DNA from: Anaeromyxobacteraceae bacterium
GTDB lineage: Bacteria; Myxococcota; Myxococcia; Myxococcales; Anaeromyxobacteraceae
Length of the DNA: 64,000 nt
Direction: 5' to 3'
NCBI GenBank assembly: GCA_047602405.1
Contig: JASGHJ010000002.1
Coordinates: 1,824,001-1,888,000 of the forward strand
Part shown: piece by piece, positions 10,294 through 31,482 of the stretch
Numbering within the stretch: the stretch's first letter is position 1
Layout of the letters: every line of letters begins with the position of its first letter
Notes under the pieces: model-generated
Told to the model about the DNA's origin: nothing
Databases searched by the model: none
Seen by the model: the letters and a program-made list of their open reading frames with translations, nothing else
Made by a program: the position numbers and the translations under genes

Positions 10294-10302
10294 AACCTTG
10301 TG

Positions 10303-10374: not shown

Positions 10375-10431
10375 GGGTGCTTCTGCTGTGTTACAGCGGA
10401 ACCGGTGAAACAACTGCTGAAACGGCGGCGG

Positions 10432-10460
10432 AGTATGCCGTCCGGTCGGGGGCCTGTCAA
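10432..10460 (-). promoter_or_regulatory. Sigma70-type promoter of tRNA-Val
   Basis: TTGACA-N17-CATACT upstream of the tRNA. Confidence 0.65.
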
Positions 10461-10805
10461 CGAGGCTTCGCAGGGCCCTTCCCGTTCGACCGGGGGTGGT
10501 CCTGCTCCTCGTCGGCGGCGTCCGCGGCGTCGGCCGCGAGCTGCTCGGAGAGCTCCCGGGCCTTGCGCTTGATGCGCGCGAGCTGCTTCGCGAGCTCCTG
10601 GTACTCCTCGCGCCCGGGCACGCCGGCGGCCTTCAGGAGCGCCGCCTGGGCCTCCTCGAGCTTCTCCTTGCCCTTCTGGGCCAGGCCGACGGCGGTCGCC
10701 ACGGCCTCCTTGCCGCGCGGGTCGTTCATCACGGTGTCCGCGGCCTTCACGACGAACTTCGTGCCCTGCTCGAGGATGAGAATCGGTGAGGCCCTTCTTC
10801 GACAT
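10457..10805 (-). CDS. Small helical hypothetical protein (phasin-like pattern); probable frameshift at 10780-10784
   Basis: MSKKGLTD joins (L)ILEQGTKFVVKAAD on removal of one base; GVPGREEYQELAKQLARI motif; coiled-coil tail. Confidence 0.6.
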
Positions 10806-10834
10806 GACTGTCCTGCCCTTCGAGGCGCCGCCCT

Positions 10835-11246
10835 TCATTGAAACTCGGTCGTGACCGCCGCCAGCGCGGCGTCCACCACCCGACGGTACTCCACCCGGCG
10901 GACGAGCGCCTCCAGAATCTCCCTCGACCCGCACCCGGCCCGACAGCGCCGCCTTCACCGGGTCCTCGCCCCGCATGACCGCCCGCCAGACGCCGTAGGG
11001 CGCCCGGAAGACGTAGGCGGGCTCGAGCTCGAGGAGATCGTCGGGGTCCGGCAGGAGGCGGCACCCGACCACCCGCCCGCCCTCGTGCCGCCCGTAGGCG
11101 GCGACGTCCCGGGGCCAGCCCGCGCCGTCCCGCCCGACCACGAGCCCGCCGTCGCGGCCCAGGCCCGCGAGCGCCCGCGGCAGCTCGGGCTGCCGGTTCA
11201 GCGCCTCGACGACGGCGGCGAGCCACTCCTTCGACGCGAACCGCAT
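10835..11246 (-). CDS. SCP2 sterol/lipid-binding domain protein; probable frameshift at 10915-10919
   Basis: MRFASKEW start; APYGVW...DPVKAALSGRVRVEGD(L) SCP2 signature. Confidence 0.75.
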
Positions 11247-11248
11247 GG

Positions 11249-12856
<1,608 letters not shown>

Positions 12857-12938: not shown

Positions 12939-15900
12939 CTACGGGGCCACGACGTAACGGGCGCGCACCTCGAGGTAGTCGAGGCTCACCTCCCCGTCGC
13001 CGGTGGCGCGCCCGGTGGCAGGCAACCGGCACTGCACGGGCAGGTGCTGCCCGAGCAGGTACTGGGAGGGCGCCGCGCCCAGCGGCACCGACCAGTCGAG
13101 CAGCGCGGGAGCGTCCGCGGTGGCGGCGTTGCCCGCGACGAGCTCCCAGCCCGAGCGCAGGGTGGCGCCGTAGGCCCGCCAGAGCGCGAGCGTCGCGCCG
13201 CGATCGGAGGCGCCCCGCGGAGCCCATGCGCCGCCGCAGGCCGCCCGCACGCGCAGCCCCGCGAGCGTCGCGAGGTCGAACCCGCCCGCGCCGAGGTCGA
13301 GGTCCGCGTGCACCGCCGGGCTCTTCGCCGGATCGAGCTCCGCCTCCCACAGCCCCCGGGACCACGGGTTGATCACGTCGCCGCTCCCGGCGTCTCCGCC
13401 GAAGAGCACGAGCGTCCGGCGCAGGGTGTCGTAGCCCATGCCGAAGCCCGCCCGCGGCGACGGGGGCGTCCCGTAGGTCGCGCGCTGGCGCCAGCGGGCG
13501 CCGTCCCACTCCCAGAAGTCGTTGAAGTAGGTGTAGGGGAACGCGCCCGTCCGTCCGCCGAACATCATGACGACGCCGCGGTCCGGGTCGTAGGCCATGC
13601 GGTGGTCGCACCGGGCGGCGGGCCAGGGCTCGCTGGCCGCGGGCTGCCTGCGCGTCCACGCGCCGACCGTGGGCGACGTGGCGTCACCGTCCCACTCCCA
13701 CAGCTCGTCGAGCGCGGTGGTCCCGGCGCAGCCGCCGAACGCCACGATGACCCCGCCCCGCACCGGGCTGTAGGCGAGCGCCGGAGCGCGCCGGGCGCCC
13801 GGCTGCGTCCCGCCCGCCGGCGTGCGGTCGAGCCAGGCGGCGCCGGTCCACTCCCAGACGCGGTTGTCCGAGCCGCCGAACAGCACGCCGCGTCCGCGGC
13901 CGAGATCCCAGGCCATCGCGGCGGGATCGCGCGTGCCCGGGTTCGAGGTCGACGCGAGCGTCGCCCAGCCGCCCGCCTCGGTCCACCGCGCCACGTCGTT
14001 GTTGGCGGTCGTGACGTAGCCGCCGAAGAGGAAGAACCTCCCGCCCGCGGCGGGATCGTACACGAGGGCCGAGTCGCGCCGGGCGGTCGTCGCGCCCGCG
14101 TTCCACCAGCGCGTCCCGTCCCAGCGGTAGTACTGGCCGATCGCGTCCACCGAGCCAGGCCCGGCCTGCCCGCCCACCACGTAACACCCGCCGCTCCCGA
14201 CCGGCGTGCACGCCAGCCCGGGACCGCGCACGGCGGCGGGCGGGCCCGGCGGCGTGGCCGGGCACGGCCACCCGGTCGCCGTCAGGCGGAGCTCGTAGGC
14301 GAAGATGCCGGACGTGAGGTCGCGGCCGCCGAAGAGCATCGTCGCGTGCGCGAGCGGGCTGTGGGCGAGCTGGATCGAGCGGCGCCGGATGGGCTCGCAG
14401 CCGGTGTACGGCCCGTTGATCGCGGCCCAGCCCTTCGACGTCCACCGGTAGGTGAGCTGCGTCTCGTCGTTGACGTAGCCGCCGGTCATCACCACCGCGC
14501 CGAGATCGGCGTCGTAGACCATCGCGTGGCCCGAGCGGGCCGGAGGTGCGACGGTCCCCGACCACGGGCTCCAGTCCTTCCCGTCCCAGAGCCAGGTGTC
14601 GGGGAGGTCGCCGCCCGCGCCCTTGCCGCCGAAGAGCACCACCTGCCCGAGCGCCGGGTCGTAGCCGAGGGCGTGCTCGGCGCGCGGCGCGAGCGCGGGC
14701 GGGACCGGCAGCGACCGCCAGCCCTTGCCGTCCCAGATCCACGCGTCCGCGAGCGGCGTGCCGGCTGCGTCCCTGCCGCCGACGAGCAGGACCTGCCCGC
14801 GATCCACGAGGTCCACCATCGCGGCCGCCCGGCGCGGCGACGGCCCCGCGCCCGTCGCGAAGCGCCGGCCCCAGGCGGAGCCGTTCCAGGTCCACAGGGC
14901 GTCGGTGGCGGTGGCGCCCGGGCCGCCGCCGAAGACGAGGACGACCGAGCGCGCGCTGTCGTAGACCATGGCGTGCCCCGACAGCGGGCCCGGCCCCTCC
15001 CCGGCGTACGGACGCGCGCGCCACGCGCCGTCCCACTCCCAGACGTCCGCGAGCGTCCCCTCGTTGGCGTTGCCGCCGTACATCACGATGACGCCGCGGC
15101 TCGGGTCGTAGGTCATCGCGTGGGCCTCGCGGGCCGGCGGCACCGGGGCGGCCTCACCGGCGACGGCGAACGGGATGCCGAACTCGGCGCGCAGGCCGGT
15201 CCCGTCGAGCCCGGCCACGGCGGCGTCGTCGCCGACGCGCACGGTGCGCTCGTCCACGTAGGTCGCCTGCGCCGCCGGCCGGGTCTCGAGGCGATGCGGC
15301 CCCGCGTCGCCCACGGTCCCGCGGAGGGTGCCGACCCACTCGACGTTCCGGACGGCCACCGGCGCGCTGGCGTTGCCCGCGTCGTCGAGGCCGCGCACCC
15401 AGACGCGGGGCGCATCGCTCGCGAGCGGCGTGCGCGGCCACGCGCCGCCCGCGCCCGGGGTGAGCTCCGCGAGCAGCCCGAACCCGTCCTTGCTCGCGAG
15501 CACCTGCACGCGGCGGAGCGGCGCGGCGCCGCCGAAGGAGAAGGTCCCGGCCGGCAGCGTCGCGCTCCCGCCCAGGGTGTCGGCCGGGGCGAGCTCGAAG
15601 TAGGGGCCGGCCGGCAGGACCCACCCGGCCACGGTCTCGCTCACCTGGTTGCCCGTGGGCGAGCGGACGAAGGTCACCGCACCCTGGTTCACGACGAGGG
15701 CCGGCGCGGCCTGCCGGACCACCACGGACGGGCCCGGCAGCGGGGCCGACGCGTTCCCGGCGGCGTCCCGCAGGGTCACGACGGTCGCGAGCGTGCCGGA
15801 GGAGGTCCCGGCGTTCGCGAGCCCGGTGAACGCGGCGGTCCCGGCGGCCCCGGACACGGCCGGGACGAAGTCCAGGCCGGCGGGCGCGGTGGTCTCGAGC

Positions 15901-16542
15901 GCCTGCAGCGCGGCGTCGGCGAGGGGCTCGTCCGCGTCGAGCTCGACCCTGATCTCGGTCCCGCCCGTGGCTGCGGCGAGGTCGGCCTCCGCGAGCGGGT
16001 TCGCCGGCCCGGGCAGGTACCTGACCCGGGCCGTGGTCAGGCCGGGCGGGGTGCGATTCGTAGGTCACGCTGCCGAGCGCGACCCCGAGGTTCTCGGCGC
16101 CCGTGGCGCCGACGAGGCTCGCGCTGACGGCGTACGTGCCCTCCGGCTCGGGGGTGCCGCCCTGACCGAAGCGGCGCCCGAGGACGTACCTCCGGCCGCT
16201 GGCGCTCACGACCTCGAGCGGGATGGAAGTCGTCCCGAGCGTCGCGACCACCTGGGGCGGCCCCGCGAGGTCGGCGGTGGCCTCGAGCTCGACCGTGAGG
16301 ATCCCTTGCGCCGCGAGGAGCGCGGGCTGGACCCGCGTCGAGGCCGCGACGAGCCCCGGGGCCGGGTCGCCGGCGCGCTCGGTCGAGACGCAGCGCTGGA
16401 TGGAGGAGCGGCACGTGAACCCCGACGGGCAATCCGCGTTGCGCTCGCACGTGACGAGGGCGCCGGGGTCGACCTCGAGCTTCGGGCTGCAGGCGAGGAG
16501 TAGCGCGGCGATGGCGACCAGACCCGCGAGCTGGGCTCTCAT
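12939..16542 (-). CDS. Large (~1200 aa) lipoprotein with Cys-rich N-terminus, Ig-like region and 12 Kelch-like repeats; probable frameshift at 16055-16059
   Basis: Lipobox LLAC; removing one base (TYD-RTPPG) joins the two ORFs; repeated R..H.M.YD..RG.V.LFGG...D.WEWDG..W. Confidence 0.75.
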
Positions 16543-16608: not shown

Positions 16609-18768
16609 TCAGAAGGGCACCCCGTCGTCCTCGTCGGGCCCGGGCGCGTCCGGCGCGGCCGGCCCGGGCTCCCCGAAGAGCGCCGGGATGACCCGGGGAT
16701 CGTGCCCGAGCACGGGGACCTCGGGCGCGCCGTCGAGCGCGGGCAGGTCCGCGCCCTCGTCGAGCTGCCAGCGCTCGAAGAGCGGCGGCTCGGCCGGGAG
16801 CTCCTCGAGGAACCGGGAGGCCTTCATGACGACGCGCTCGCGGTCGCGCGGCGCGGCGACGACCGGATACGTGAGGTAGAGCTCGTCGCGGGCCCGGGTG
16901 CAGGCGACGTAGAAGAGCCGGCGCTCCTCCTCCTCGCCCTCGAGGTCGCGCAGCGCCTGCGAGGACGGGAAGCGCCCGTCGGCGAGCCACACCAGGAAGA
17001 CGGCCCGCCACTCGAGCCCCTTCGCCTGGTGCACCGACGAGAGCACCATCTTCTCGTCCGGCTCGGAGCCTTCCGAGACCGTCTCTGCGCTGAGCTCGGT
17101 GAGGAGCGCGATCTCGGAGAGGAACGCGTCCATGTCCTGGTACGAGCGCGCGAACTCGGCGAGCTGCCGGACGTCCTCGATGCGCGAGTCGGCGTTCAGG
17201 AACTCGGCCTTGAGGAACTCCTCGTAGCCGTCGTCGAGCACCCGCTCGATGGACTCGCCGGGGAGGTCGCAGAGGGGCTTCCGCGACAGCCGCTCGAGGA
17301 GCTCCGCGAGCCGCGCGTAGCCCGCCCGGCCCTTCGCGGGCACGTGGCAGGCGACGTCCTTCGCGGTCAGCTCCTCGACCCTCCCCTGCCCCGTCCGCCG
17401 CCGGCCCGCGAAGGCGTGCCAGACGGCCTCGGCGGTGGCGGAGCCCACGCCCGGCGCGAGCCGCATGCACCGCTTGAAGGCGAGCTCGTCGCCCGGGTTG
17501 CGCGCGAAGCGCAGGTGGGCGAGCACGTCCTTCACGTGCGCCGCCTCGAAGAAGCGCACGCCGCTGCGGACGACGAACGGGATGCCCCGCCGCGCGAGCT
17601 CGAACTGGATCTCCATCGCGTGGTGGTGGGCCCGGTAGAGCACCGCGATCTCGGGCAGCGGGATGCCCTCGTCCCTGAGCTCGAGCACCCGCTGCGCCAC
17701 GAAGGCGGCCTGCTGCTGCACGTCGCGGCAGGGCACGACCGCCGGGAGGGTGCCGTCCTTGCGAACCGCGCTGAGCTCCTTCTCGAACTGCCGGACGTTC
17801 GCCGCGATCGAGGCGTTCGCGAGCGAGAGGATCTGCGGCGTGGAGCGGTAGTTGACGGTGAGGTCGAAGCGCCGCGCGTCCGGGTAGCGCTTCTCGAACT
17901 CGAGGATGTTCTCGAAGTGGGCGCCGCGGAACGAGTAGATGCTCTGCGCGTCGTCGCCGACCACGCAGAGGTTCCGGTGCCCGGCCGCGATGAGGTCGAC
18001 GACGTCGCCCTGCAGCCGGTTCGTGTCCTGGTACTCGTCCACGAGCACGTGCTGCCAGCGGGCCTGGAGCGCCTTGCGCACCGGCTCCTTCTCGGCGAGC
18101 AGGATCTTCCAGTTGAGGAGCAGGTCGTCGAAGTCCATCGCGTTCATCCCGTGCTTGCGCTCGTGGTAGCGCCGGGCGACGCGGAGGAGGTCGTCGGTCT
18201 GGGGGGCGAACTGCGGGCGGCGGACGGCGACGAGGTCGGCGAGCGGGGTCTGCGTGTTGATGGCCATCGACACGAGGTCGAGGACGACGTCGGCCTTCGG
18301 GAACCGGCGGGCGCCCACCGCGAGGCCGCAGTCGGCGATGGCGGCGCTCATGAGGTCGCGCGCGTCCTCCCGGTCCAGGATGGAGTAGCCGGGGCGGTAG
18401 CCGAGCTGGGCGCCGTGCTCGCGCAGCACCTGGTGGGCGACGTGGTGGAACGTGCCGCCGGTGAGGCGGCGGGCGTCCACACTGCCTCTCGAAGCACCGC
18501 ACAGCTCCTCGACGCGGCCGAGCATCTCGCGCGCGGCCTTGTTGGTGAACGTGAGGAGGAGGATCGCCTCCGGCTGGACGCCCTCCGCGAGGAGCCGGGC
18601 GACGCGCCAGGTGAGCGTGCGCGTCTTGCCGGAGCCCGCGCCGGCCACGACGAGGATCGGGCCGCCGCCCGCCTCGACCACGGCGATCTGCTGCTCGTTG
18701 AGCAGGCCCACGTAGTTGAGGGCGCGGGCGGGGACCGCGGCGGGCTTGAGCTGGTAGCGACGGGACAT
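16609..18768 (-). CDS. UvrD/PcrA/Rep family ATP-dependent DNA helicase
   Basis: AGAGSGKT, LVDEYQD, GDDAQSIYSFRGA, SVHQAKGLEW, EERRLFYVACTRA. Confidence 0.95.
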   Translation of the reverse strand: MSRRYQLKPAAVPARALNYVGLLNEQQIAVVEAGGGPILVVAGAGSGKTRTLTWRVARLLAEGVQPEAILLLTFTNKAAREMLGRVEELCGASRGSVDARRLTGGTFHHVAHQVLREHGAQLGYRPGYSILDREDARDLMSAAIADCGLAVGARRFPKADVVLDLVSMAINTQTPLADLVAVRRPQFAPQTDDLLRVARRYHERKHGMNAMDFDDLLLNWKILLAEKEPVRKALQARWQHVLVDEYQDTNRLQGDVVDLIAAGHRNLCVVGDDAQSIYSFRGAHFENILEFEKRYPDARRFDLTVNYRSTPQILSLANASIAANVRQFEKELSAVRKDGTLPAVVPCRDVQQQAAFVAQRVLELRDEGIPLPEIAVLYRAHHHAMEIQFELARRGIPFVVRSGVRFFEAAHVKDVLAHLRFARNPGDELAFKRCMRLAPGVGSATAEAVWHAFAGRRRTGQGRVEELTAKDVACHVPAKGRAGYARLAELLERLSRKPLCDLPGESIERVLDDGYEEFLKAEFLNADSRIEDVRQLAEFARSYQDMDAFLSEIALLTELSAETVSEGSEPDEKMVLSSVHQAKGLEWRAVFLVWLADGRFPSSQALRDLEGEEEERRLFYVACTRARDELYLTYPVVAAPRDRERVVMKASRFLEELPAEPPLFERWQLDEGADLPALDGAPEVPVLGHDPRVIPALFGEPGPAAPDAPGPDEDDGVPF

Positions 18769-18863
18769 ACGTTCAGGAGCGTCCACCCTACCAGCGACCT
18801 CCGACACCGCCGCTCCGACGGCAGCACCCCGGGAGTCCCGACTCGGTGGTACACCTCGCGGCC

Positions 18864-19364
18864 ATGGGAAAGTCCGGCGGCCTCATCCTGCTCGCCCTCG
18901 GCGGGCTCGTCGCCTCGCTCGCGGGCCAGACGACCTGGTCCACCTGGCAGAACCTCTCCGCGGGCCCCGTCGCCGCGACCGTCGCCTCGGCGCCGGCGGA
19001 GCGGTGGATCACGCTCGAGGACGCGGCGGTGCGCTGCGACACCCGCCGGACCGCCGGGCGCTCGGCGTTCTACGAGGCGTCCCCCAGGGCGGGCGGCGAG
19101 GTCTTCCTCGTGCAGGCGGCCGAGGACCAGCCGTGCGAGGGGCTGGTGCTCCAGGGCGGCTTCGGCCGCGACCGGCTGACGGCGGAGAACATCCGCTCCC
19201 GGCTCGGCGTCGAGCCGCCGAAGCAGGGCGACGCGCGGGTCTTCAACGTGCTCGGTCCCGACTTCATGAAGCGCGCGCTCTACGTCGCCGGCCCGATGTT
19301 CCTGCTCGGGCTCGCGACGATCGCGCTCGGCCTGCGCCGGTACCGCGCGGCGCAGCGTCAATAG
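18864..19364 (+). CDS. Hypothetical membrane protein
   Basis: N- and C-terminal hydrophobic segments flanking a two-Cys extracytoplasmic domain. Confidence 0.65.
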   Translation: MGKSGGLILLALGGLVASLAGQTTWSTWQNLSAGPVAATVASAPAERWITLEDAAVRCDTRRTAGRSAFYEASPRAGGEVFLVQAAEDQPCEGLVLQGGFGRDRLTAENIRSRLGVEPPKQGDARVFNVLGPDFMKRALYVAGPMFLLGLATIALGLRRYRAAQRQ

Positions 19365-21004
19365 TCGGCGTACACCGTGGCGTTGCCGGCGATCCCCACC
19401 GGCGGGCTCTGGCCGGAGATTGGCACGCGCGCGAGCGCCGCGAGCCTCAGCCCCACGTGCGGGTTGAAGGCGATCGCGCTGCCGAGCGAGAGCCCCGCCT
19501 CGTCCTGGAACAGCCCCAGCGACGACTCGTGCGAGTACGTCGCGCGGGCGGTGAGCCGGAGCGCCTCGCCCGCCCTCCAGCCGACCTGCGTGTAGGCGCT
19601 CCGGCCGTCGAGCCACCCGCGCTCCTCGAGGTAGCCGAGCACGAGATCGATCCGGTTCCCGAGCAGGCGCAGCGCGGAGAGCTCCGGGCCCACCCACGCC
19701 CGGTTCAGCTTCGAGTCGGTGTCGCGGGACGCGCCGCCCACGACCGCGAGGCGCAGGTACCGCCAGGCGTCGAACGAGACGAAGCCGTCGGCGGCGTCGC
19801 CGCGGCCCGGGTAGACCGAGGGCTCGAGCAGGCGGTCCGGCCACGCGAGCGCCTGGCGGCGCGCGCCCAGCCCGACGAGGAGGCTCTGGAACGGGTGCAG
19901 CGTGACGTCCACGCGGGCGAGGTCGAGCTTGCCGGGCGCGGAGACCTGCCCGCCGGCGCCGAGGCGCGCCTCCGCGTTGACGTCGACCGCCTTCGCCCAC
20001 GCCCGCGCGCCCAGGTCCACCTCGACGCGCGAGCCGAGCTCCGGCGACTTCACGAACGCGAGGCGCCCGTCGGTGGCGACCTGCACGCCGCTCGCGAACA
20101 CCTTGCCGATCGACCACGTCCCGCCCGCGGTCACCCGCTCGGTGCCGGGGGTGAGCGTGTCCGGCGCCGGCAGCGCGCCGGCGTAGAGGCCGAGGCGGGC
20201 CGGGCCGGTGTCGAACCGCGCCGACACGCCGTCCACCACCGTCGCGCCCAGGGCGCCGAAGGACCGCAGGCGGCCGGCCGAGAAGGTCGCGAAGGAGATC
20301 GGCGCGTTCACCTGCGCCTGCCAGACGTGGATGCGGGTGGCGGGCCCCTCCCCGAGGTCGTGCGAGTCGGGCACCCACCGCTCGGCGCGCGCGTCGAGGT
20401 CGAGCGTGAAGCGGCCGCCGACCGGGACGCCGTGGAGCATGACGTCGACGCGCGCGGCCTCGCGGTCCTGCCCCGGGCCGGTGGACGTCCAGGCCCAGGC
20501 AGAGAGCCCGAGCTCCGCGTTCCGGGCGGTGGGGCCGGCCGGCCGCGGGCCGGTCGCCTTGAAGACGACCTGCGGCAGCGGGGGCGCCGCCGCGACGAAC
20601 GAGGCCCGGCGCGCGAGCTCGTCGTCCTCGACCAGCGGCTCGAGCGTCTTCACCTCGCCGCCGGCCGGAGCGCCGGCCTGGAAGTATGCGTCGTCGCCCT
20701 TCCTGAGCCCGGCGACCGCGCACGAGGCGTTGTGATCTCCCACCTGGTCGACGGTGCAGCGCCCGACCACCTCGGCGCGGCGCTTGAAGGTGACCTGCTC
20801 GCCGAGCGACAGGCCGTCCACCGCGCCCGCGTCGAGGTAGGCGCGCGTGGCGGACAGGTAGACGACGTCGGCGGTGCCCGCCCTGTGGCTGGCGCGGCGC
20901 GGGCCGCCCTCCTCGAGCGGCGAGGCGCGCAGCACGACCGCCGGCGGGCGGGCGCCGGGCGCGAGGGCGACGAGAACGGCGAGGGCGAGGCCGAGGGTCT
21001 CCAT
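19358..21004 (-). CDS. Putative outer-membrane beta-barrel (porin) with N-terminal beta domain
   Basis: Signal peptide; long run of amphipathic beta-strand patterns; C-terminal aromatic (ATVYADY); last gene of the cytochrome operon. Confidence 0.7.
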   Translation of the reverse strand: METLGLALAVLVALAPGARPPAVVLRASPLEEGGPRRASHRAGTADVVYLSATRAYLDAGAVDGLSLGEQVTFKRRAEVVGRCTVDQVGDHNASCAVAGLRKGDDAYFQAGAPAGGEVKTLEPLVEDDELARRASFVAAAPPLPQVVFKATGPRPAGPTARNAELGLSAWAWTSTGPGQDREAARVDVMLHGVPVGGRFTLDLDARAERWVPDSHDLGEGPATRIHVWQAQVNAPISFATFSAGRLRSFGALGATVVDGVSARFDTGPARLGLYAGALPAPDTLTPGTERVTAGGTWSIGKVFASGVQVATDGRLAFVKSPELGSRVEVDLGARAWAKAVDVNAEARLGAGGQVSAPGKLDLARVDVTLHPFQSLLVGLGARRQALAWPDRLLEPSVYPGRGDAADGFVSFDAWRYLRLAVVGGASRDTDSKLNRAWVGPELSALRLLGNRIDLVLGYLEERGWLDGRSAYTQVGWRAGEALRLTARATYSHESSLGLFQDEAGLSLGSAIAFNPHVGLRLAALARVPISGQSPPVGIAGNATVYADY

Positions 21005-21007
21005 CCG

Positions 21008-21847
21008 TCAGTCTCCGTTGCCGGCCGGGTGGCACCGCAGGCAGGCGGCCGTCGCGTACTCGTAGCCCTGCCTGCCCGCGTGCTGCCGATCCATCTCGCT
21101 CCGCGAGTGGCAGCCGGAGCAGTCCTTCACCGAGAAGTCCGCGGCCCAGGGCCGGTCGGAGCGGAGCGAGGGATGGCAGGTGAGGCAGTTCCCGCCCCTC
21201 GCCGGGCCGTGCTTCCCCGACGCGATCCCGAACGGCTGGTGCGCCGACACCCGGTCCACCTGCCCTTCGCCGTGGCAGCGCACGCACTGCATCGAGCCGA
21301 AGGCGTACCCCGTCGTCGGGTCGGGCTTCACGAGCACGTGGGCGGACGCCATCGCCGGCTGCTCGTGGCCGTGGCAGCCGGCGCACCCGAGCACCTTCCG
21401 GTCCGTCGGCTGCACGTGGCAGTCGGCGCACCTCGCCGTGGCGTGCTTCGTCGCGGCGCCGATCGGGAAGTACTTCTGCGTGTGCACCGCCGGGTCGATG
21501 CCCGAGGCGGTCCCGTCGGAGTGGCAGAGCTTGCAGCCCTGGCTCGGCACGGACCGGTCCGCGGCCGAGAAATCCGGGAAGCCCGCCTGGCCCACGTGCT
21601 TCGCCTGGAGGTTCGCCGCGTCGGCCGCGGTGCCCGCGTGGCACGTCACGCAGTCGAACCTGCGGAACGTCTCGTAGGAGCCGTGGCACTCCTCGCACGA
21701 GACGCCGGCGTGGTTGCTCGCGGCCTCGATGGGGAAGTAACTCGCCCCGTGCGAGTCGCGCGACGGCATGGTGAGCCAGGGGGCGTTCCCCCCGTTGCAC
21801 GCCGCGAGCAGCGCCACGGCCGTGAGCGCGGAGAGGCGGGCCCTCAC
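21008..21847 (-). CDS. Nine-heme c-type cytochrome lipoprotein
   Basis: GTG overlaps upstream stop; lipobox LAAC; 9 CxxCH motifs in three tri-heme units. Confidence 0.9.
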   Translation of the reverse strand: MRARLSALTAVALLAACNGGNAPWLTMPSRDSHGASYFPIEAASNHAGVSCEECHGSYETFRRFDCVTCHAGTAADAANLQAKHVGQAGFPDFSAADRSVPSQGCKLCHSDGTASGIDPAVHTQKYFPIGAATKHATARCADCHVQPTDRKVLGCAGCHGHEQPAMASAHVLVKPDPTTGYAFGSMQCVRCHGEGQVDRVSAHQPFGIASGKHGPARGGNCLTCHPSLRSDRPWAADFSVKDCSGCHSRSEMDRQHAGRQGYEYATAACLRCHPAGNGD

Positions 21848-24682
21848 CTGCGCACCCCGCGCGACCCGCTCGCGGGCAGGCGCAGCCCGGCGCCGCCGGT
21901 GGAGAACTTGTGGCACTCGTAGCACTTGCGCTCCGTGCACGAGAAGCCGGCCACCTGCTCGTGCTCGGCGCAGGAGTGGCACGACTGGCACTTCGTCGTG
22001 TCGGTGAGGCAGGTGAGCGGCTTCGTGACGTCGACGCCCGGTGGGACGGACGCGTGGCAGTCGCGGCACCTCACGCCCGCGTGGCGGCCGCGCGAGAATC
22101 TCGAAGCAGGCGTCGTGGCCCGCGAGGCCCGAGGGCGAGAAGCCCCACGTCGAGTGGCACCGCTGGCAGGCGGTCGGGAACCCCGCGACCGCGTGGTCGA
22201 CGAGCGCCCCGCCGGCCTTCGCCCGGTCGAACTCGGCCTGGTGACACCCGAGGCACTCCCGCGTCGCGCGGGTGAACCCGAGGTCGCGGCGGTTCGCGTG
22301 GCACTGGTCGCACGCGGTGAAGGCGTGCTTGCCGGTGAGCGGGAAGTCGCTGCGCCGGTGCGCGTCGGCGTCGAAGCGGGTCGCGCGCCAGGAGGTGGCG
22401 TCGTGGCAGCGCTCGCAGCGCCCGCCGAGGCGGCCGGCGTGGACGTCGGCGTGGCAGGCCGCGCAGGCGCGCGGCACCGGCGCCTTGAAGGTGCGGTCCA
22501 CGTGGCAGCCGCCGCAGGCCGCGCGCTGGTGCGCGCCCTCGAGCGGGAAGCCGGTGCGGGCGTGGTCGAAGCCCTGGGCCTGCCAGCTCGCGGTCGAGTG
22601 GCAGGAGGCGCAGACGGTCTCGGTGGAGGCCGGCGCGGCGTCGGCCCGGGCGGTGCGGACCGACAGGTCGGGCGCGGGCGACGGGCGCGCGCCCCTCGCT
22701 GCCTGGGCGGAGCCCGCCGGCGCGGGCGCGGCCGCGCCGGGCGCCTGCATCGACGCGGGGAGCGAGAAGCCGCGGAACGCCCCCTTGTGGAAGTCGTCGT
22801 GGCAGGCCTGACAGGCGACCGGCACGGGCTTGTACCGGCGCGTCTCGACGCCGGCGACCTTCACGAGCCCGTGGCACCTCGCGCACTCGACCTTCTCGTG
22901 CTTGCCGTCGAGCACGAAGCGCGAGAACTGGGCCGTGTGCCGGAACTTGAGGTTCGGGTCCTTCCAGCCCGCCGAGACGTGGCAGCGGGCGCAGTCGGTC
23001 TGGCCCTTCACCGCGAGCTGACCCTGGTGGATGTCCGGGTGGCAGCCCGCGCAGGTGATCGGGAGCGGCTTGTACTTGATGGCGCCGTCCGGCCCGGTCT
23101 TGTGGCAGGAGCCGCAGGCCGCGTTCGTGTGCTTGCCGTCGAGCGGGAAGCGCGACTCCTTGTTGTGGTCGAACCGCACCTTCTTGAAGGACTCGAGCAC
23201 GTGGCAGGCCGCGCAGCCGGTGCCCGCGCCGGCGGTCGACGCCGCCGCGGTGAGCCGGGCGTCGAACTGGCCGCCGTGCGGATCGCGGTGGCAGGTGCGG
23301 CAGTCGCCCGCCCTCGGGATCGCGAGGAGCGCCTGGCTCACCTTCAGCGGGCGCTTGCGCCGCGCGAGCTCCTTCTTGATCGCCTCGGGGACCTTGCGCT
23401 CGAGGCGCGGGTCCTTCGGGTGGCAGAGCGCGCACGCCACGGCCTTGTGCGCGCCCTCGAGGCGGTACTCGAGCTTCGCGTGATCGGCGACGTCGAACTT
23501 CACCGGGAGGAAGCCGTTCACCGTGTGGCAGGCCTCGCAGTCCGGGCCGGCGGCCGGCGGGGCCGCGGCGATCACCGGCTGGACCTTGCCCTTCTTGCCC
23601 TTCCGGCCGCCCTCCAGCGACGCGTTCGCCGGCAGCGGCCCCGCGATGGCGAGCCGCGCGAGCTGGCCCTCGTGCGCGTCGAAGTGGCAGTCCGAGCACC
23701 TCCCGAACGCCATGTTCTTGAAGACGGCCTTCTGGCCCGCGAACGGCCCGTGGCACGCCGTGCACTTCACCTCGACGTGCTCGCCGCGCAGCGGGTAGCG
23801 GGTCTTGTCGTGGAACGCGCGCTCGGCGGCGGCGCCGGAGAGCTTCTTCCAGTCGGCCACCGTGTGGCAGCCCGCGCAGCGCTCGCCGAAGCGGCCGACG
23901 TGCGGGTCCTTGTGGCAGTCGGTGCAGTTGCCGAACTGGAGCCCGGTGTACTTCACGAACGCGGCCGCGTTCGCGAAGGCGACCTGGCCCGGCGCCGGCT
24001 TGCGCTGCTCGGGGTCCTGCTCCGGCTTGTGGCACTTCGCGCACTCGACGCGGGCGTGCTTGCCCTCGAGCGGGTACTTCGCCTTCGCGTGGACGAAGCC
24101 CCTCGCGGGCTTCCAGGCGTCCTCGCCGTGGCAGCGCTGGCAGTCGTTGCCGAGCTGGCCGCGGTGCTCGTCGGCGTGGCAGGCCGCGCAGGCGGCGGGC
24201 GCGCCGAGCCAGCTCTTCTTGCCGGGGTGCTTCTCGAGGAGCGCGAGCACGCCTGCGTCGGCGACGAGCCGGTGGTCGTGGCACTTCTCGCAGTCGGCCC
24301 GCCGGTGCCTCCCGCGCAGCTCGTAGCCGGTCCGGGCGTGGTCGAACCCCTTCCGGCCCTCCTTGCCCCAGTCGACGAGGGCGAAGTCGCGGCCCTGGTG
24401 CTCGTGGTGGCACTTCTCGCAGGCCTCGCCCGGCGGGAGCTTGCCGTGGAGCCCCTTGCCCCGGCCCATGAGCGCCTTCACCTCGCCGTGGCAGGCGAGG
24501 CACGCCTCCGGCGTGAGCTGCTTCCCGGCGGTGTGGCACTTCGTGCAGTTCTGGAGCCCCTCGTAGGCGGCGTGGGCCTTCGCGAGCTCGCCGGGCGAGA
24601 ACAGGTCGGCGCGCGCGGCGGCGGGAGCGGCGAGCGCGAGGGCGGCGGCGAGCGCCGCGGCGGATCGGCGGAGGAGGTTCAT
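21844..24682 (-). CDS. Giant multiheme cytochrome c (~945 aa, 30 CxxCH); probable frameshift at 22096-22100
   Basis: Sec signal MNLLRRSAAALAAALALAAPAAARA; 27 CxxCH before and 3 after the one-base insertion; repeating FDH..T.FPL.G.H units. Confidence 0.9.
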
Positions 24683-26910
24683 CGGTGGAGGAGCCCGTAG
24701 CCGAGGTAGAGCGACAGCCCGATGTGGGCGGCGATGACGAGGACGAGCAGCACGGCGAGCGTGGCGTGGAAGGCCCGCCAGGTGCGCAGGAGCCGCTTGA
24801 GGCTCCCGTAGAAGCGGATCTGCCAGCGCAGGGTCTCGAGCTTCAGGATCGCGAGCTTGAACGACTTGAACGCGAGCTTGTCGTCGAACCTGAACCGCAG
24901 GAAGAACAGGCGGACGCGCAGCCAGAGCGCCCCCGCCGGCAGCTCCAGGAAGAGGACCGCGAGGAAGCGGGTCTTCACCGGCGCCGTCGCCTTCGCGATG
25001 AGCGCGTGCGCCGACCCCGAGGCGCGCTCGGGGATGTCGGTGAACGAGCCGCGCAGGCGCTCGAAGTGCCCGAGCAGCTCGGAGAGCTCGAGCGACTTGC
25101 CGCCGTCGCCCGGCACGATGCCGTAGATGAACCGCCCGATGATGCCGGTCGTCACCACGACGACGAGCGAGCTCGCGGTGCCCGTGGCGAGCAGGTTGTT
25201 GGACTGGAAGGCCGCGTGGTACGCGATGACGAGCGGGCTCATGAACCCCACGAAGACGTGGAAGTCGAGCCAGCTCCCGATCTTCCCGAGCGCCGAGAGC
25301 GACTTCCAGCGCTTGCGGGCCGCGTAGAGGAAGTTCGAGAGCATGAACGCGGTCGCGGCGATGCCGACCGAGTGGCCCCACGTGCCGGCGGACTTGAGCG
25401 ACGGGTGCTCCGGGGAGGCCAGGCGGCCCGCGCGATCGAGGGGGTAGTAGTCGCGCCCCACCCACGCCAGCCCGGCGAGGATCGCGGCGCCCACCGCGAC
25501 GTAGGCGACGCGGGCCGCGACGCGCCCCTTCGACGTCTTCGGCCGGGCGAGCGCGCGGGGCAGGAGCCCGTTGCCGCCGATGACCACGTTGGGGCCGGTG
25601 TCGCCGAGCCCCTCGCCGTGGAACCGGCGCATCGTGATGCCCACCTTCGCGAGGAACTCGGTGGGCAGCTCGCCGCCGATGTTCACGATGACGAAGGTGT
25701 TCGGGAGGGTGACCGGGGTCCCGTCCCTGTCGAGGTCGACGGACTTCTCGCCGATCCGCGTCACCACGGACGGGAGCAACGCCTTGATCTTCCCCGCCGT
25801 CACGAGCTGGCCGAACTTCTTGCGGTTCGCCTCGCGGCAGCGGCCGAGCTCGGCGCCGCGGTACGAGAGCGTCACCTCGGCGGTGGACTCCTCGGCGAGC
25901 TGGATGGCGGCCTCGAGCGCGGCGTCGCCGCCGCCGACCACGAGGACCTTCTCGCCGTCGAACTGGTCGGGGTCCTTGAGGCCGTAGAGCACCTTCTCGG
26001 CCGCCTCGCCCTGCACCCCGAGCTTGCGCGGCGTGCCGCGGCGGCCGATCGCGAGCACGACCTTCGAGGCCTTCAGGGTCCCCTGGCTCGTCTTGACGGT
26101 GAAGTTCCCGTCCTCGCCCTCGATCTCGTTGACCTTGACGCCCTCCTCGACCCGCACGCCGACCTTCGCGAGGACCTTCTGCCAGGTCTCGAGGAGCTCC
26201 TCCTTCGAGATGCGCGCCTTCCCGACCCGGCCCGCGCCGCCCGGCAGCTCGACGGTCTCGGTCATCGTGACCTTGCGGCGCGGGTAGTGCGCGACCGAGC
26301 CGCCGACGGTCAGCTGCTCGAGGATGCGGTGCGGGACGCCCTTCGACTTCAGGCCCACGGCCGTCGCGATGCCGGCGGGGCCGGCGCCGACGATGACGAC
26401 CGGATCCTTCGCCCGGCCCACGAGCTCGGCGATCCGGTCCGCGACCTGGAGCCCCTGGGTGAGCGCGTTCTTGATGAGGCCCATCCCGCCGAGCTCGCCC
26501 ACCACGTGGAGGCCCGGGCGCGAGGACTCGAAGAACTCGTCGACCTCGGGGAGGTCGACGCCGCGCTCCGAGGAGCCGAACACGAGGCGGATGGCGTGGA
26601 CCGGACACTCGACGGCGCACTTGCCGTGGCCGATGCAGTGGTCGCCGTGAACGAGGCGCGCGGCGCCGTCGACGACGCCGAGGATGTCGCCCTCGGGGCA
26701 GGCCTTCAGGCAGGAGAGGCTTCCGATGCAGATGTCGGTGTCGATGACCGGGTGTAGGGACTTCGCGAGGTGCGCACCCCTCGCCTTCTTCTCCTCGAAG
26801 AGCTCCTCGTCGCGGCGCTGGCGCGCGCCGCGACGCGCGACGTGTACGATCCCGGCCACCGCGGTGACGAACGCAAGCGCGGCGACGATCGAAAGACTGA
26901 AAATGTCCAT
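24679..26910 (-). CDS. Membrane-bound ferredoxin / FAD-NAD(P)H oxidoreductase fused to putative di-heme b membrane domain
   Basis: N-terminal TM; CIGSLSCLKACP and CIGHGKCAVECP; GAGPAG and GGGDAA Rossmann motifs; C-terminal TMs with two H-x13-H helices. Confidence 0.85.
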   Translation of the reverse strand: MDIFSLSIVAALAFVTAVAGIVHVARRGARQRRDEELFEEKKARGAHLAKSLHPVIDTDICIGSLSCLKACPEGDILGVVDGAARLVHGDHCIGHGKCAVECPVHAIRLVFGSSERGVDLPEVDEFFESSRPGLHVVGELGGMGLIKNALTQGLQVADRIAELVGRAKDPVVIVGAGPAGIATAVGLKSKGVPHRILEQLTVGGSVAHYPRRKVTMTETVELPGGAGRVGKARISKEELLETWQKVLAKVGVRVEEGVKVNEIEGEDGNFTVKTSQGTLKASKVVLAIGRRGTPRKLGVQGEAAEKVLYGLKDPDQFDGEKVLVVGGGDAALEAAIQLAEESTAEVTLSYRGAELGRCREANRKKFGQLVTAGKIKALLPSVVTRIGEKSVDLDRDGTPVTLPNTFVIVNIGGELPTEFLAKVGITMRRFHGEGLGDTGPNVVIGGNGLLPRALARPKTSKGRVAARVAYVAVGAAILAGLAWVGRDYYPLDRAGRLASPEHPSLKSAGTWGHSVGIAATAFMLSNFLYAARKRWKSLSALGKIGSWLDFHVFVGFMSPLVIAYHAAFQSNNLLATGTASSLVVVVTTGIIGRFIYGIVPGDGGKSLELSELLGHFERLRGSFTDIPERASGSAHALIAKATAPVKTRFLAVLFLELPAGALWLRVRLFFLRFRFDDKLAFKSFKLAILKLETLRWQIRFYGSLKRLLRTWRAFHATLAVLLVLVIAAHIGLSLYLGYGLLHR

Positions 26911-27255: not shown

Positions 27256-28857
27256 TCAGCGGGTGAAGACGACCTCACCGCCGACGATCGTCGCGGCCAC
27301 GGGCAACGAGGACAGGTTCCCGACCGGAATCGAGAACACGTCTCCCTCGAACGCCGTGAGATCGGCGTCCAGGCCCTCCCGGATCATCCCGCGCCGACCG
27401 TCCGCGAAGCCCGCGAACGCCGCGCCGGCGGTGAACGCGCGCACCGCCTCCTCGCGCCCGAGCCGCTCGGCCGGGAGGAAGGGCGCCTTCGCGCCCGCGG
27501 GCGTGCGCGTCTCCGCGGCCACCAGCCCGCCCCGCGGGTCGGGCTCCTCGATGGGGAAGTCGGAGCCGAACGCGAGCGGGAGGCCGCGCGAGAGCGCGGT
27601 GCGCCACGCGTAAGCGCCGGCGAGCCGCGCCGAGCCCGCGCCGAGCCTCGCGGGCACCCACGGCGCGTCGCTCGTGCAGTGCGTCGGCTGCATGGAGGCG
27701 ATGACCCCGGCGGCCGCGAGGCCCGGCCAGTCGCCCGCGCTCACGATCTGCAGGTGCTCGATGCGGGGCCGGAGCGCCTTCACCGCCGGGCCCGCCCCCG
27801 CCCCGGTGATCGCGGCGAGGGCCTCCGCGACGCCGCGATCGCCGATGGCGTGGATCGCCGGCTGGAAGCCCGCCGCCACCACCGCCTTCACCTTCGCGCG
27901 CAGCACCTCCGGCGGCGTGACGAGGAGCCCGCGGTTGCCGGGATCGTCGGAGTACGCCTCGCGCAGCGCCGCGCCCCGGCTGCCGAGCGCGCCGTCCGCG
28001 TAGAGCTTCACGGCGCGCACCGTGAGCCGGCCCACCTCCGCGCCCTCCGCCTTCTGGCGCGCGAGCTCCCGCTCGAGCGCGGGCACCGGCACCTCGCCGT
28101 CGATCATCGCGTACACCCGGATCGGCAGCCTCCCCTCCCGCGCGAGCCGGCGGTACGCGTCGAGCGCGGCCGGCCCGACGCCCGCGTCGTGGGCGCCGGT
28201 CAGGCCGAGGCTCGCGAGCTCCCGCAGCCCGGCGAGGAGCCCGGCCTCGAGCTCGGCCGGCGTGGGGGCGGGGATCCGCGTCTCGAGCAGCTTCATGGCC
28301 TCGTCGACGAGCACGCCGGTCGGGTTGCCGTCCTGGTCGCGCAGGAGCTTCCCGCCCTCGGGGTCGGGCGTCCCCTTCCCGATGCCCGCCGCCGCGAGCG
28401 CCGCGCCGTTCGCCCAGGCGGCGTGGCCGTCGATGCGGCGCAGGTAGACCGGGCGATCCGGGATGGCCCTCGAGAGCGCCGCCGCGGTCGGGAACCGGCC
28501 CCCGGCCCACAGGTTCTGGTCCCAGCCGCGCCCGGTCACCCACGTGCCCGGCGGCACCGCCCGCGCGCGCTCGGCGGCCCTCGCCACGCACGCCTCCTCG
28601 GAGGTCGCGCCGTTGCAGGCGACGGACGCGCGGGCCTGCGCGAGCCCGAACACGTGGCCGTGGGCGTCGACGAGCCCCGGCACGACGCTGCCGACCTTCA
28701 GCCGCCGCACGCCGGGCCCCGCCTTCGCGGCGCAGGCCTCCACGGTGCCGGCGCAGGCGATCTTGCCGTCCCGCGCGAGGACGGCCTGGACGACGGGGCG
28801 GGAGGGGTCGAGGGTGTGGATGAGGCCGATGACGAGGAGCTCGGACGCCGTGGGCAT
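27256..28857 (-). CDS. Amidohydrolase family 3 (YtcJ-like)
   Basis: PGLVDAHGH, KLYADGALGSRGA, HAIGD, RIEHLQ, FGSDFP. Confidence 0.9.
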   Translation of the reverse strand: MPTASELLVIGLIHTLDPSRPVVQAVLARDGKIACAGTVEACAAKAGPGVRRLKVGSVVPGLVDAHGHVFGLAQARASVACNGATSEEACVARAAERARAVPPGTWVTGRGWDQNLWAGGRFPTAAALSRAIPDRPVYLRRIDGHAAWANGAALAAAGIGKGTPDPEGGKLLRDQDGNPTGVLVDEAMKLLETRIPAPTPAELEAGLLAGLRELASLGLTGAHDAGVGPAALDAYRRLAREGRLPIRVYAMIDGEVPVPALERELARQKAEGAEVGRLTVRAVKLYADGALGSRGAALREAYSDDPGNRGLLVTPPEVLRAKVKAVVAAGFQPAIHAIGDRGVAEALAAITGAGAGPAVKALRPRIEHLQIVSAGDWPGLAAAGVIASMQPTHCTSDAPWVPARLGAGSARLAGAYAWRTALSRGLPLAFGSDFPIEEPDPRGGLVAAETRTPAGAKAPFLPAERLGREEAVRAFTAGAAFAGFADGRRGMIREGLDADLTAFEGDVFSIPVGNLSSLPVAATIVGGEVVFTR

Positions 28858-30105: not shown

Positions 30106-31482
30106 CTACGGCTGAGGCGCGGGCTCGCTCGCGGGGGCTTGCCCCGCCGGGGACGGCTTCGGCACCGGCGAGGGGGCCGGCACGGGCGACGGCACGGCCG
30201 GCGGGCGGTTCTCCTCGAGGATCGGCCGGACGTCGGAGGACGGGGACGTCGTGAGCTCGGGCACCGCCGCGGGGATCGCCTCGACCCGCGCGCGACGGCG
30301 GGGCGGCGGCTCCTGGGCAGGCGCGTTCCCATCCTGGGCGACCGGGTTCACAGCCGGGGCAGGTGGCGGGGGCGGCGCGGTGAGCCGCTGCCTCAGGCGG
30401 CGGGCCCCCTCGTGACGCGCGTTGGCGGACAGCACGGCCTCCGCGGCGGCGAGCGCCTCGGTGGTGCGCCCGAGCGAAGCCTGCCCCCGGGCGAGCAGCC
30501 ACCGCGCGCGGAGCAGCTCCGGGTGGGCGGCGGCCAGGCCGGCGAGGCGCACGACGGCCCGGTCGCGGGCGTCCGCCGCGCCGTCGAGGTCGAGCGACGC
30601 CTCGGCGAGGTCAATCCACGGGTCGGGCTCGCCGCGGGCCCGGGCGGCGCTGGCGAGCGCGGCCACCCGCGGGCGCTCCCGCGCGCTCGCGGCCCCGAGC
30701 GCCTGCGCGCGGACGACGGCGGGCACCTCGGAGTCCCCGGGCGGCAGCGCGGCGAGCGCGGCGCGCGCGGAGGCGAGCAGCGCGGCGGCCTTGCCGAGGC
30801 GCGGGTCCTCGCCCTCGCCCGCCGCGGCATCGTCGGTGGCGTCCTCCCGCCACAGCTCCGCGCGGACGACGCGGGCGAGGGCGGCCGAGGCCACGTTGAC
30901 CGCCCGGCCCGGCTCCCGCCGCGCGGCGTCGTCGAGCTTCGCGATCGCGGCGTCCAGGCTCTGCGCGTCGTCGAGGGCGAGGAGCGCGAGCCCCTCCCCC
31001 CGCGCGCGCTCCGCGTCGGGGTCGGTGCGGTTCGCGAGGAACCACCAGGCGCCGCCGCCGAGGGCGAGCACGCCGGCGACGATCGCGGGGGCGAGCCACT
31101 TCCAGCGGGCGGTCCACTTCAGCCGCGACTCGAACGCGCCGACCTGATCCTTGCGCAGCACCGGGGCACGCACCGGCGCCTGCGAGGGGCCGGGCGTGGG
31201 GCGGTAGACCTGCGGGCTCGCGGACCGCGTGCGGTCGGACGCGGGCGCGCGCAGGCCCGGGGTCGGCCGCGGGGGCGGCTCCGGAGCGGGCTCCGCGGGC
31301 GCGGGGCCCGGGGGCGAGCCCTGCAAGGCCGGCAACCCCACGAGCGTCCGTCCGGCGGCTCGCGGCGGGTACGCCACGAACACGTTCTCACACTTCGTGC
31401 ACTGGACCGGCGCCCCTTCCGGCGCGAGCACGGTCTCGTCGAGCTCGTAGACGGTGGAGCAGCGCTCGCAGCGGATCAGCAA
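30106..31482 (-). CDS. MJ0042-type zinc-ribbon membrane protein with TPR-like extracytoplasmic domain
   Basis: CERCSTVYEL...VQCTKCENVF, Pro-rich linker, one TM, helical repeats. Confidence 0.75.
   Translation of the reverse strand: MLIRCERCSTVYELDETVLAPEGAPVQCTKCENVFVAYPPRAAGRTLVGLPALQGSPPGPAPAEPAPEPPPRPTPGLRAPASDRTRSASPQVYRPTPGPSQAPVRAPVLRKDQVGAFESRLKWTARWKWLAPAIVAGVLALGGGAWWFLANRTDPDAERARGEGLALLALDDAQSLDAAIAKLDDAARREPGRAVNVASAALARVVRAELWREDATDDAAAGEGEDPRLGKAAALLASARAALAALPPGDSEVPAVVRAQALGAASARERPRVAALASAARARGEPDPWIDLAEASLDLDGAADARDRAVVRLAGLAAAHPELLRARWLLARGQASLGRTTEALAAAEAVLSANARHEGARRLRQRLTAPPPPPAPAVNPVAQDGNAPAQEPPPRRRARVEAIPAAVPELTTSPSSDVRPILEENRPPAVPSPVPAPSPVPKPSPAGQAPASEPAPQP

Follow-up and report, generated by a model that had tools for sequence, protein, structure and literature searches.

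The window analysed here is a stretch of 64,000 nucleotides from contig JASGHJ010000002.1 of an Anaeromyxobacteraceae bacterium. Its gene P0001 (24679-26910, minus strand) is a single open frame of 743 amino acids, which joins in this order a membrane anchor, a ferredoxin, a flavoprotein of the YpdA/thioredoxin reductase (TrxR) type and a five-helix membrane domain. The gene is single-copy in its host genome and is discussed below as the candidate cytoplasmic entry of an electron conduit resembling the predicted porin-cytochrome clusters known as PCC3. The original prediction had read P0001 as a one-polypeptide chain from NADPH through flavin adenine dinucleotide (FAD) and iron-sulfur clusters to b haems; every motif that it quoted is found in P0001, but it left out the downstream operon of cytochromes and a barrel, which was found and is the likely outlet of such a chain. 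The features, all on the minus strand, are the following.

24679..26910: fused gene P0001 with anchor, ferredoxin, permuted TrxR-type flavoprotein and di-haem-type membrane domain (open frame, relatives)
26839..26904: N-terminal membrane anchor, residues 3-24, predicted N-out/C-in (hydropathy, Lys/Arg pattern)
26581..26754: ferredoxin domain for two clusters, residues 53-110; six Cys plus Ser64 and His95 (Pfam Fer4_10, conservation)
26419..26562: residues 117-164, the C-terminal part of the TrxR/YpdA fold in a displaced position, with G-E replacing G-D and then the closing helix (profile matches)
25615..26409: FAD- and NAD(P)H-binding core, residues 168-432 (Pyr_redox_3, structural alignment to 7A7B)
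24700..25530: five-helix membrane domain, residues 461-737, PCC3-type, with a helical, predicted cytoplasmic insertion at about 600-710 (motifs, model, hydropathy)
25372-25374: H513, a fifth His near the predicted outer face, in 101/102 fused proteins; Tyr in 24/32 stand-alone homologues
25216..25272: helix 3 motif W547-x3-H551-x13-H565 (conservation)
25144-25149: T588-G589 on helix 4, Thr-Gly in fused and Ser-Gly in stand-alone proteins
24724..24780: helix 5 motif W711-x3-H715-x13-H729 (conservation)
21844..24682: predicted exported multihaem cytochrome with 30 CxxCH, the first 27 separated from the last 3 by an extra base at 22097 (open frame, motif count)
21008..21847: predicted lipoprotein cytochrome, 279 amino acids, 9 CxxCH (lipobox-like start read from sequence)
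19358..21004: predicted outer-membrane beta-barrel, 548 amino acids (inferred from a crude count of strand alternation that separated poorly from controls)

On the whole protein, Pfam placed Fer4_10 at residues 53-103 (E 5.9e-10) and Pyr_redox_3 at 172-427 (E 1.5e-41), with no match on the C-terminal third, and the AlphaFold model has a mean confidence (pLDDT) of 80.5 and a pTM of 0.71. The closest relative, P0002 of Anaeromyxobacter sp., is also 743 amino acids long and 95% identical; at least 120 relatives share the architecture at 58-95% identity across most of their length, and the family comprises at least 8,000 scored candidates at E<=1e-30 (8,000/8,000 scored). Orthologues occur in cultured strains, namely A. 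dehalogenans (ABC82437.1), A. oryzae and Sideroxydans (Slit_0866). The atlas neighbours are clusters without a name. The open-access literature yielded no description of the fusion, the permutation or the flavoprotein; subscription papers, supplements or Supplementary Figure 4 of He et al., on the domains of PCC4 redox genes, may hold one. The available parts of PMC7399161, bioRxiv 10.1101/2025.02.27.639646, PMC2330069 and PMC4245776 do not describe the flavoprotein, and Table 6 of He et al. 2017 (PMC5566968) lists, without names, "other redox proteins" of 412-805 amino acids that may touch its family.

The flavoprotein, its coenzyme and its iron-sulfur ligands

The motif order reported for the superfamily is the FAD glycine motif, ATG, the NAD(P) glycine motif, GxxP and finally GD (PMC1924876). 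P0001 holds all five, at 175-180 (GAGPAG), 287-289, 326-331 (GGGDAA), 413-416 and, as G-E, at 138-139, but the GD-type motif does not come last: ESSRPGLHVVGE at 128-139 precedes GAGPAG. Residues 171-428 align to positions 2-262 of the 316 positions of the YpdA model TIGR04018, and the modelled residues 168-432 superpose on residues 3-269 of YpdA 7A7B (Z 22.2, root-mean-square deviation 4.0, 262 aligned). The preceding segment corresponds to positions 271-314 of the same model: its homologues (residues ~116-165) match YpdA at E<0.1 in 30 of 62 cases, with a best value of 3.4e-5, and five of the ten that were scanned singly hit this model, all within positions 270-314. When the segment profile was compared with the PDB at E<=1, 17 of the 20 matches listed were flavoproteins of the TrxR fold, each matched weakly at its C-terminal motif (best E 0.044). 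The window's own displaced segment, taken alone, gave no significant match (best flavoprotein E 0.48, ranked behind a designed repeat protein) and no NCBIfam match. Since the YpdA matches of segment and core are complementary and do not overlap, it is established at the sequence level that the flavoprotein is a circularly permuted member of the two-dinucleotide-binding-domain (TrxR/YpdA) fold, and the family a natural circular permutation of the TrxR fold. The original prediction, which had proposed such a permutation and called for a structure comparison, is thus borne out by profiles, by homologous segments and by the model. Furthermore, G-E stands ahead of the FAD motif in 100/103 fused proteins and in 50/51 of the unfused set (P0001 plus 50 unfused proteins), and all 50 unfused proteins end 22-33 residues past GGxxP.

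In its two-domain FAD/NAD(P)H fold without a redox CxxC, the protein resembles both the bacillithiol disulfide reductase YpdA/Bdr (7A76, 7A7B) and the TrxR-type ferredoxin:NADP+ reductases. It differs from both in the permutation, in the Glu that replaces Asp in G-D, and in the fused ferredoxin and membrane anchor. The absence of a redox CxxC, claimed from the start, holds for residues 112-432 throughout (0/103 fused, 0/51 of the unfused set), and this loss would be explained because the fused ferredoxin would take single electrons from the flavin. YpdA itself has a flavin potential of -242 mV, 82 mV above NADPH (bioRxiv 10.1101/2020.12.02.408641). It is very improbable that the flavin of P0001 acts on a small cytoplasmic substrate in the manner of YpdA, which needs no cysteines to reduce bacillithiol disulfide, and that the haem chain is its second source of electrons. 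YpdA is indeed the closest solved relative by sequence and fold, but P0001 scores 148.9 bits against the TIGR04018 cut-off of 339.9, and the YpdA residues Cys14 and gating Tyr (Tyr128/133) align to Ala179 and Arg291, although Cys14 is not universal among YpdA proteins (bioRxiv 10.1101/2020.12.02.408641). Moreover, no YpdA over the cut-off was found in the 151 genomes of the phylum searched, and no YpdA loci were obtained from plasmids. Judged by these scores and residues, the flavoprotein is neither a YpdA nor a TrxR.

As to the coenzyme, SYRG lies at 349-352, with Y350-R351 present in 103/103 fused and 50/50 unfused proteins, a basic residue is conserved at 359, and the NAD(P) glycine motif ends in Ala in 102/103 fused proteins. 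In NfnB and DsrL-2 the motif YRR marks the binding of NADP(H) (PMC7596348). NADPH is likely to be the coenzyme and to be preferred over NADH, as originally suggested from GGGDAA and SYRG; the invariant pair and the Ala-ending motif support that suggestion, while the YRR motif is incomplete.

The ferredoxin motifs read C61-x2-S64-x2-C67-x3-C71-P and C92-x2-H95-x2-C98-x3-C102-P. By the usual ferredoxin ligand pattern, C61, C67 and C102 would ligate a [3Fe-4S] cluster and C92, H95, C98 and C71 a [4Fe-4S] cluster. His95 is kept in 120/120 relatives and 102/102 fused proteins (overlapping sets) as well as in 50/50 unfused proteins, and a His-ligated [4Fe-4S] cluster may accordingly be expected at the second site. 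Ser64 is invariant in the fused proteins, whereas position 64 of the 50 unfused ones is Cys in 32, Ser in 14, Thr in two, Ile in one and Ala in one, so that a Ser-ligated cluster as a family-wide trait was rejected. In a midpoint-rooted FastTree tree of 86 of the 120 flavoprotein domains, Cys at this position is confined to a clade mostly paired with proteobacterial-type membrane proteins. Because position 64 tolerates Ile and Ala, it is unlikely to be a required ligand, and a [3Fe-4S] cluster is likelier in P0001 than a Ser ligand, although ligation by Ser or Thr, as put forward for DsrL (PMC7596348), is a lesser possibility. The non-canonical ligands of the original prediction therefore stand for the invariant His95, and Ser64 turns out to be specific to a clade.

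The membrane domain

The C-terminal domain carries H551-x13-H565 and H715-x13-H729, each with a Trp four residues before the first His; two such W-x3-H-x13-H motifs arose in 0/20,000 shuffles of P0001. The spacing H-x13-H alone is weak evidence, because it also occurs twice, unconserved, in the soluble parts (91-105 and 194-208), and it is conservation and helix position that carry the case. All four helix His are kept in 102/102 fused proteins, an alignment from which the locus L052, with an aberrant C-terminus and Gln at 715, was left out. Among stand-alone homologues, the helix 3 pair is kept in 32/32 and the helix 5 pair in 28/32, the other four being gaps. The claim of two H-x13-H helices thus held when their conservation was examined in both forms of the protein. 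Hydropathy windows of the alignment, at 465-483, 513-531, 550-568, 573-591 and 716-734, delimit five helices, and the model of the domain is helical with a pLDDT of 89.6.

The positive-inside pattern was read from the Lys/Arg counts. In 50 sequences with the anchor helix, the mean count is 0.12 before and 4.38 after it, with more after it in 50/50. Along the protein the means are high after the anchor (5.5), before helix 1 (6.2), between helices 2 and 3 (5.7) and before helix 5 (5.5) and low between helices 3 and 4 (0.2), a contrast weakened by the 4.3 in the 25-residue loop that joins helices 1 and 2. This distribution puts the flavin part in the predicted cytoplasm, with helices 3 and 5 parallel as in the NADPH oxidase NOX2, and a periplasmic flavin domain, which the original prediction had named as an outcome that would count against it, was rejected on the same pattern. 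In NOX2, two membrane haems are held by His pairs of the parallel helices 3 and 5 (PMC3591440). By analogy, H551 and H715 would hold the inner haem of P0001, and H565 and H729 the outer one.

Like NOX, FRE and those MsrQ-like proteins that have NAD-binding domains, P0001 would pass electrons from cytoplasmic NAD(P)H via flavin to two membrane haems bound by His pairs of helices 3 and 5. These proteins set a precedent for a membrane domain with two haems that is fed by NAD(P)H (PMC3591440, PMC8238504). The NOX, FRE and MsrQ-like proteins have a dehydrogenase module of the ferredoxin-NADP+ reductase type behind the membrane domain, whereas in P0001 a TrxR-type module with iron-sulfur clusters stands in front, and the outlet is apparently a wire of cytochromes. 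The ferric-reductase-like reading of the original prediction fared well on the four His, a feature of that domain which P0001 shares, and less well on family membership. The domain alone scores 15.8 bits (E 0.015) with Pfam Ferric_reduct PF01794, under the cut-off of 28, while 8/35 members match at E<0.1 (best 0.0013), and the motifs are those of the PCC3 inner-membrane protein. No significant sequence match in the PDB was found for the domain, and its model gave no Foldseek match at E<=0.001. In a wide structural search the best matches were helical sensor bundles (Z 10.1); cytochrome b561 5OC0 (Z 8.4, root-mean-square deviation 3.5, 135 aligned) and the designed two-haem bundle 7AH0 (Z 7.6) ranked below unrelated helical bundles, and the best 50 matches listed included no chain of NOX, FRE or MsrQ, which excludes nothing.

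An NADPH oxidase or assimilatory ferric reductase, whose outer haem would reduce periplasmic O2 or chelated Fe(III) with the cytochromes as optional partners, strikes us as distinctly improbable. The weak Ferric_reduct match speaks for it, and so do T588-G589, which is invariant in fused proteins (102/102, with Ser-Gly in 32/32 stand-alone) and recalls the Thr-Gly signature of NOX if the positions are equivalent, and the presence of the cassette in Emticicia and Myxococcus-type records. However, the position of NOX His-119, four residues past the second helix 3 His, is Gln in 83/102 fused proteins, where His falls outside the five commonest residues, and His in 2/32 stand-alone ones, and the perfect co-occurrence of the gene with cytochrome and barrel in 40 relatives, detailed below, argues for a protein acceptor.

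The operon and its relation to PCC3

The start of the 30-haem cytochrome gene overlaps the stop of P0001. L006 and three of four related runs do not have the extra base that splits this gene at 22097, and in the fourth run a nearby base, at 22084, is missing; by this comparison the base at 22097 is likely an assembly error. A fusion in frame of both cytochromes, with 36 haems in one frame, was rejected as an effect of this base. Between 21785 and 21844 the window has 58 bases where related runs have 408, and the N-terminus of the lipoprotein cytochrome is shorter here. The 548-amino-acid protein belongs to no Pfam or NCBIfam family, and its gene is conserved as the last of the operon in relatives. 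Neither a sigma-70 promoter nor an informative terminator was found, and the listing showed no RNA holder.

Loci were fetched by the flavoprotein, 136 in all (56 + 80), of which 68 have the fusion, 50 lack it and 18 are cut or broken; the context was counted where 3 kb were available on both sides (38 fused, 17 unfused). A cytochrome with at least 10 haems adjoins 30/38 fused genes and a barrel 29/38. Unfused loci have a separate gene for the membrane domain in 16/17 and a cytochrome of at least 10 haems in 16/17, in varied order and orientation; the barrel model, which was built from the fused clade, found no barrel in these 17. Across 40 relatives, the gene, the large cytochrome and the barrel occur in the same 17 and in 0 of the remaining 23, although these kin are not independent and some of the 23 genomes are incomplete. 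The host genome has three more frames with 29-30 CxxCH (C1:1815255-1819022, C2:1159185-1162886, C2:2093315-2096941). In L025, L026, L028, L029 and L035, a gene for 29-30 haems lies directly behind the barrel gene, and in L040 (12368-17314) a frame of 1,649 amino acids with 63 CxxCH lies directly behind the fused gene. In the Acidobacteriota/Thermoanaerobaculia loci L038, L043, L044, L049, L050 and L052 (~9860-12100), the fused gene stands alone, several times with a divergent gene of ~131-151 amino acids upstream. On the Emticicia oligotrophica plasmid pEMTOL02 (L142, NC_018749.1, 8034-19832), ccsA, a 281-amino-acid hypothetical protein, the unfused flavoprotein, two cytochromes and a 538-amino-acid hypothetical protein follow in a row. 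This plasmid is 100 kb long and typed as non-mobilizable.

He et al. 2017 described PCC3 as a predicted cluster of four genes in Proteobacteria, defined in Fe(II) oxidisers and including a quinone-linked membrane protein, which in PCC3 and PCC4 has five helices, the third and the fifth with W-x3-H-x13-H and the fourth with SGxxG (PMC5566968). P0001 shows the five helices and both W-x3-H-x13-H motifs, with Thr for Ser in the last motif, a conserved variant (TGxxG in 102/102 fused and SGxxG in 32/32 stand-alone proteins). The PCC3 gene set of membrane protein, periplasmic and surface multihaem cytochromes and porin recurs in the operon of the window and in its relatives, with localisation and barrel predicted from sequence. 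Haem numbers of 21, 24 and 27 are those of PCC3 (PMC9900912), and unfused relatives adjoin cytochromes with 21-24 haems. In L095, L102, L109 and L115, the membrane protein, a 21-haem cytochrome, a second cytochrome and a barrel-like gene of 696-821 amino acids have the flavoprotein beside them.

A link to a published cluster comes from Sideroxydans ES-1, in which Slit_0867-0870 is one PCC3 cluster (PMC8788666). The adjoining Slit_0866 is listed in a proteome supplement as a 430-amino-acid pyridine nucleotide-disulfide oxidoreductase (PMC12016527); it is mentioned in none of the open-access main texts searched, including that of PMC12016527. The comparison was made with peptides of Slit_0866. 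Five published ones fall, in sequence order, at positions 109, 214, 283, 296 and 422 of the family, three of the five being identical to unfused members, and their best scores exceed the maximum of 150 background frames.

The operon thus resembles PCC3 in its five helices, paired W-x3-H-x13-H, S/T-G-x-x-G and very large multihaem cytochromes with a barrel in one cluster, and differs in the ferredoxin-flavoprotein fused in front, in Thr for Ser and in its Anaeromyxobacter-like host. By these motifs and gene contents it is a variant of the predicted PCC3 kind. Its periplasmic cytochrome, barrel and surface cytochrome also recall the Geobacter-type Pcc and Shewanella-type Mtr conduits. In those conduits quinol oxidases supply the electrons, and no NAD(P)H module is fused at the entry. 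Anaeromyxobacter is reported to have a Pcc cluster of two genes with a 12-14-haem cytochrome, which is different from this operon (PMC4245776).

He et al. also proposed a role in quinone chemistry for the PCC3 membrane family (PMC5566968), and on this proposal the membrane domain would be a quinone-reactive cytochrome b and the fusion an NADPH:menaquinone oxidoreductase, or a three-way junction of NADPH, quinone and c haems. One ES-1 cluster without an adjacent flavoprotein and eight fused genes apart from cytochrome genes are consistent with it, and the well-kept H513 could line a quinone site. On the other side, quinone reduction on the cytoplasmic side would need neither a second, outer haem nor the tight link to exported cytochromes, and even the separated fused genes share a genome with one: for those eight, one broken locus and one control, a cytochrome homologue was found elsewhere in the genome in 10/10 cases (E<=7.8e-30). 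We regard a quinone-reactive role as unlikely, though to be taken seriously.

Proposed direction and destination of the electrons

We give slightly better than even credence to the reading that P0001 is the cytoplasmic entry and the inner-membrane crossing of a PCC3-type conduit, which carries electrons from NADPH to the outside and bypasses quinone. NADPH would reduce FAD in the cytoplasm, and single electrons would then pass through the two iron-sulfur clusters to the inner and the outer b haem. From there they would reach the exported 30-haem cytochrome, probably without quinone, and, via the predicted barrel and the lipoprotein cytochrome, an acceptor outside the cell. Such a chain may serve as an overflow for NADPH or reduce acceptors too low in potential for menaquinol. 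We infer the cofactors, the outward direction and the acceptor. The membrane potential draws electrons outward, with a proton left behind in the cytoplasm, and opposes inward flow; export would thus spend proton-motive force instead of building it up and could reach acceptors below menaquinol. Several lines of evidence speak for export of NADPH electrons: the operon, the co-occurrence in 17/40 relatives, the cytochromes in trans, a ferredoxin in place of the CxxC and gating Tyr, the charge pattern, Y350-R351, the precedent of NOX and MsrQ, the decrease on Fe(II), and the hosts that reduce Fe(III). The last two refer to the transcripts of both ES-1 PCC3 clusters, which are lower on Fe(II) than on thiosulfate (PMC8788666), and to Fe(III)-reducing Anaeromyxobacter isolates, which carry orthologues.

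The same chain could run inward: a mineral, an electrode or a partner cell would give up electrons, which would travel by way of barrel and cytochromes to the flavin and there reduce NAD(P)+. The definition of PCC3 in Fe(II) oxidisers (PMC5566968) and the close structural kinship with TrxR-type ferredoxin:NADP+ reductases favour uptake, and so does the magnetite response: late in growth, the level of Slit_0866 on magnetite exceeds that on Fe(II)-citrate by log2 2.35 (q 0.018) and 2.55 (q 0.003), and both PCC3 porins are also higher (PMC12016527). Nevertheless, uptake seems quite unlikely. The redox gap and the membrane potential would both oppose it, so that a donor near or below -0.5 V would be needed, and the fall of PCC3 transcripts on Fe(II) goes the other way. 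Slit_0866 is also weakly identified, with five peptides and a score of 3.8; many samples show zero intensity for it, and the proteome study calls its cluster "largely not detected" (PMC12016527).

Several points weigh against outward export from NADPH. At the third position of YRR, just 4/103 fused and 3/50 unfused proteins have Arg, the 30-haem gene of this strain carries the extra base, and the membrane model is without a clear structural relative. A neighbouring cytochrome is absent in 8/38 fused loci, for which reason the statement that the gene is always next to one was rejected. The second ES-1 cluster, Slit_1446-1449, which is better detected, adjoins an HD hydrolase and an aldolase and no such flavoprotein (PMC12016527), so that the membrane protein can also occur with no flavoprotein next to it. 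Both the source of Slit_0866, an autotroph that oxidises Fe(II), and the rise of this protein on magnetite suit uptake as well, and the open-access literature yielded no assay of any family member.

A bolder generalisation, which we offer tentatively and would sooner doubt than believe, is that PCC3 conduits are exporters of NADPH electrons and not iron oxidases. The permuted flavoprotein with its His-ligated ferredoxin would then be a fifth component of these conduits that had been overlooked, and that in Myxococcota and Acidobacteriota is fused to the membrane protein. The whole would be an independently built analogue of NADPH oxidase, in which the membrane potential drives electrons of low potential, bypassing the quinone pool, to acceptors beyond the reach of menaquinol, namely minerals, humics or partner cells. 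PCC3 has been a candidate conduit for iron oxidation since 2017, with no known inner-membrane partner and no functional test found in the literature. The fused NAD(P)H module names such a partner, argues for outward flow and offers an assay on a single polypeptide. If the generalisation is true, genome surveys that count PCC3 as a marker of Fe(II) oxidation need revision, and a quinone-independent export route is added to extracellular electron transfer.

The genes that flank the operon, all on the minus strand, encode a UvrD helicase (16609-18807), an amidohydrolase 3 (27256-28854) and a zinc-ribbon membrane protein (30106-31482), and no link to the operon was seen. Elsewhere in the window, at 33348-34885 on the plus strand, one gene, which we take to be histidine ammonia-lyase-like, is spread over two frames that overlap (33348-34466 and 34193-34885), which hints at a further single-base error. 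Similarly, at 12939-16542 on the minus strand, a frame with a lipoprotein-like start (15154-16542) and a repeat-rich frame of 972 amino acids (12939-15857) resemble the halves of one frameshifted surface protein.

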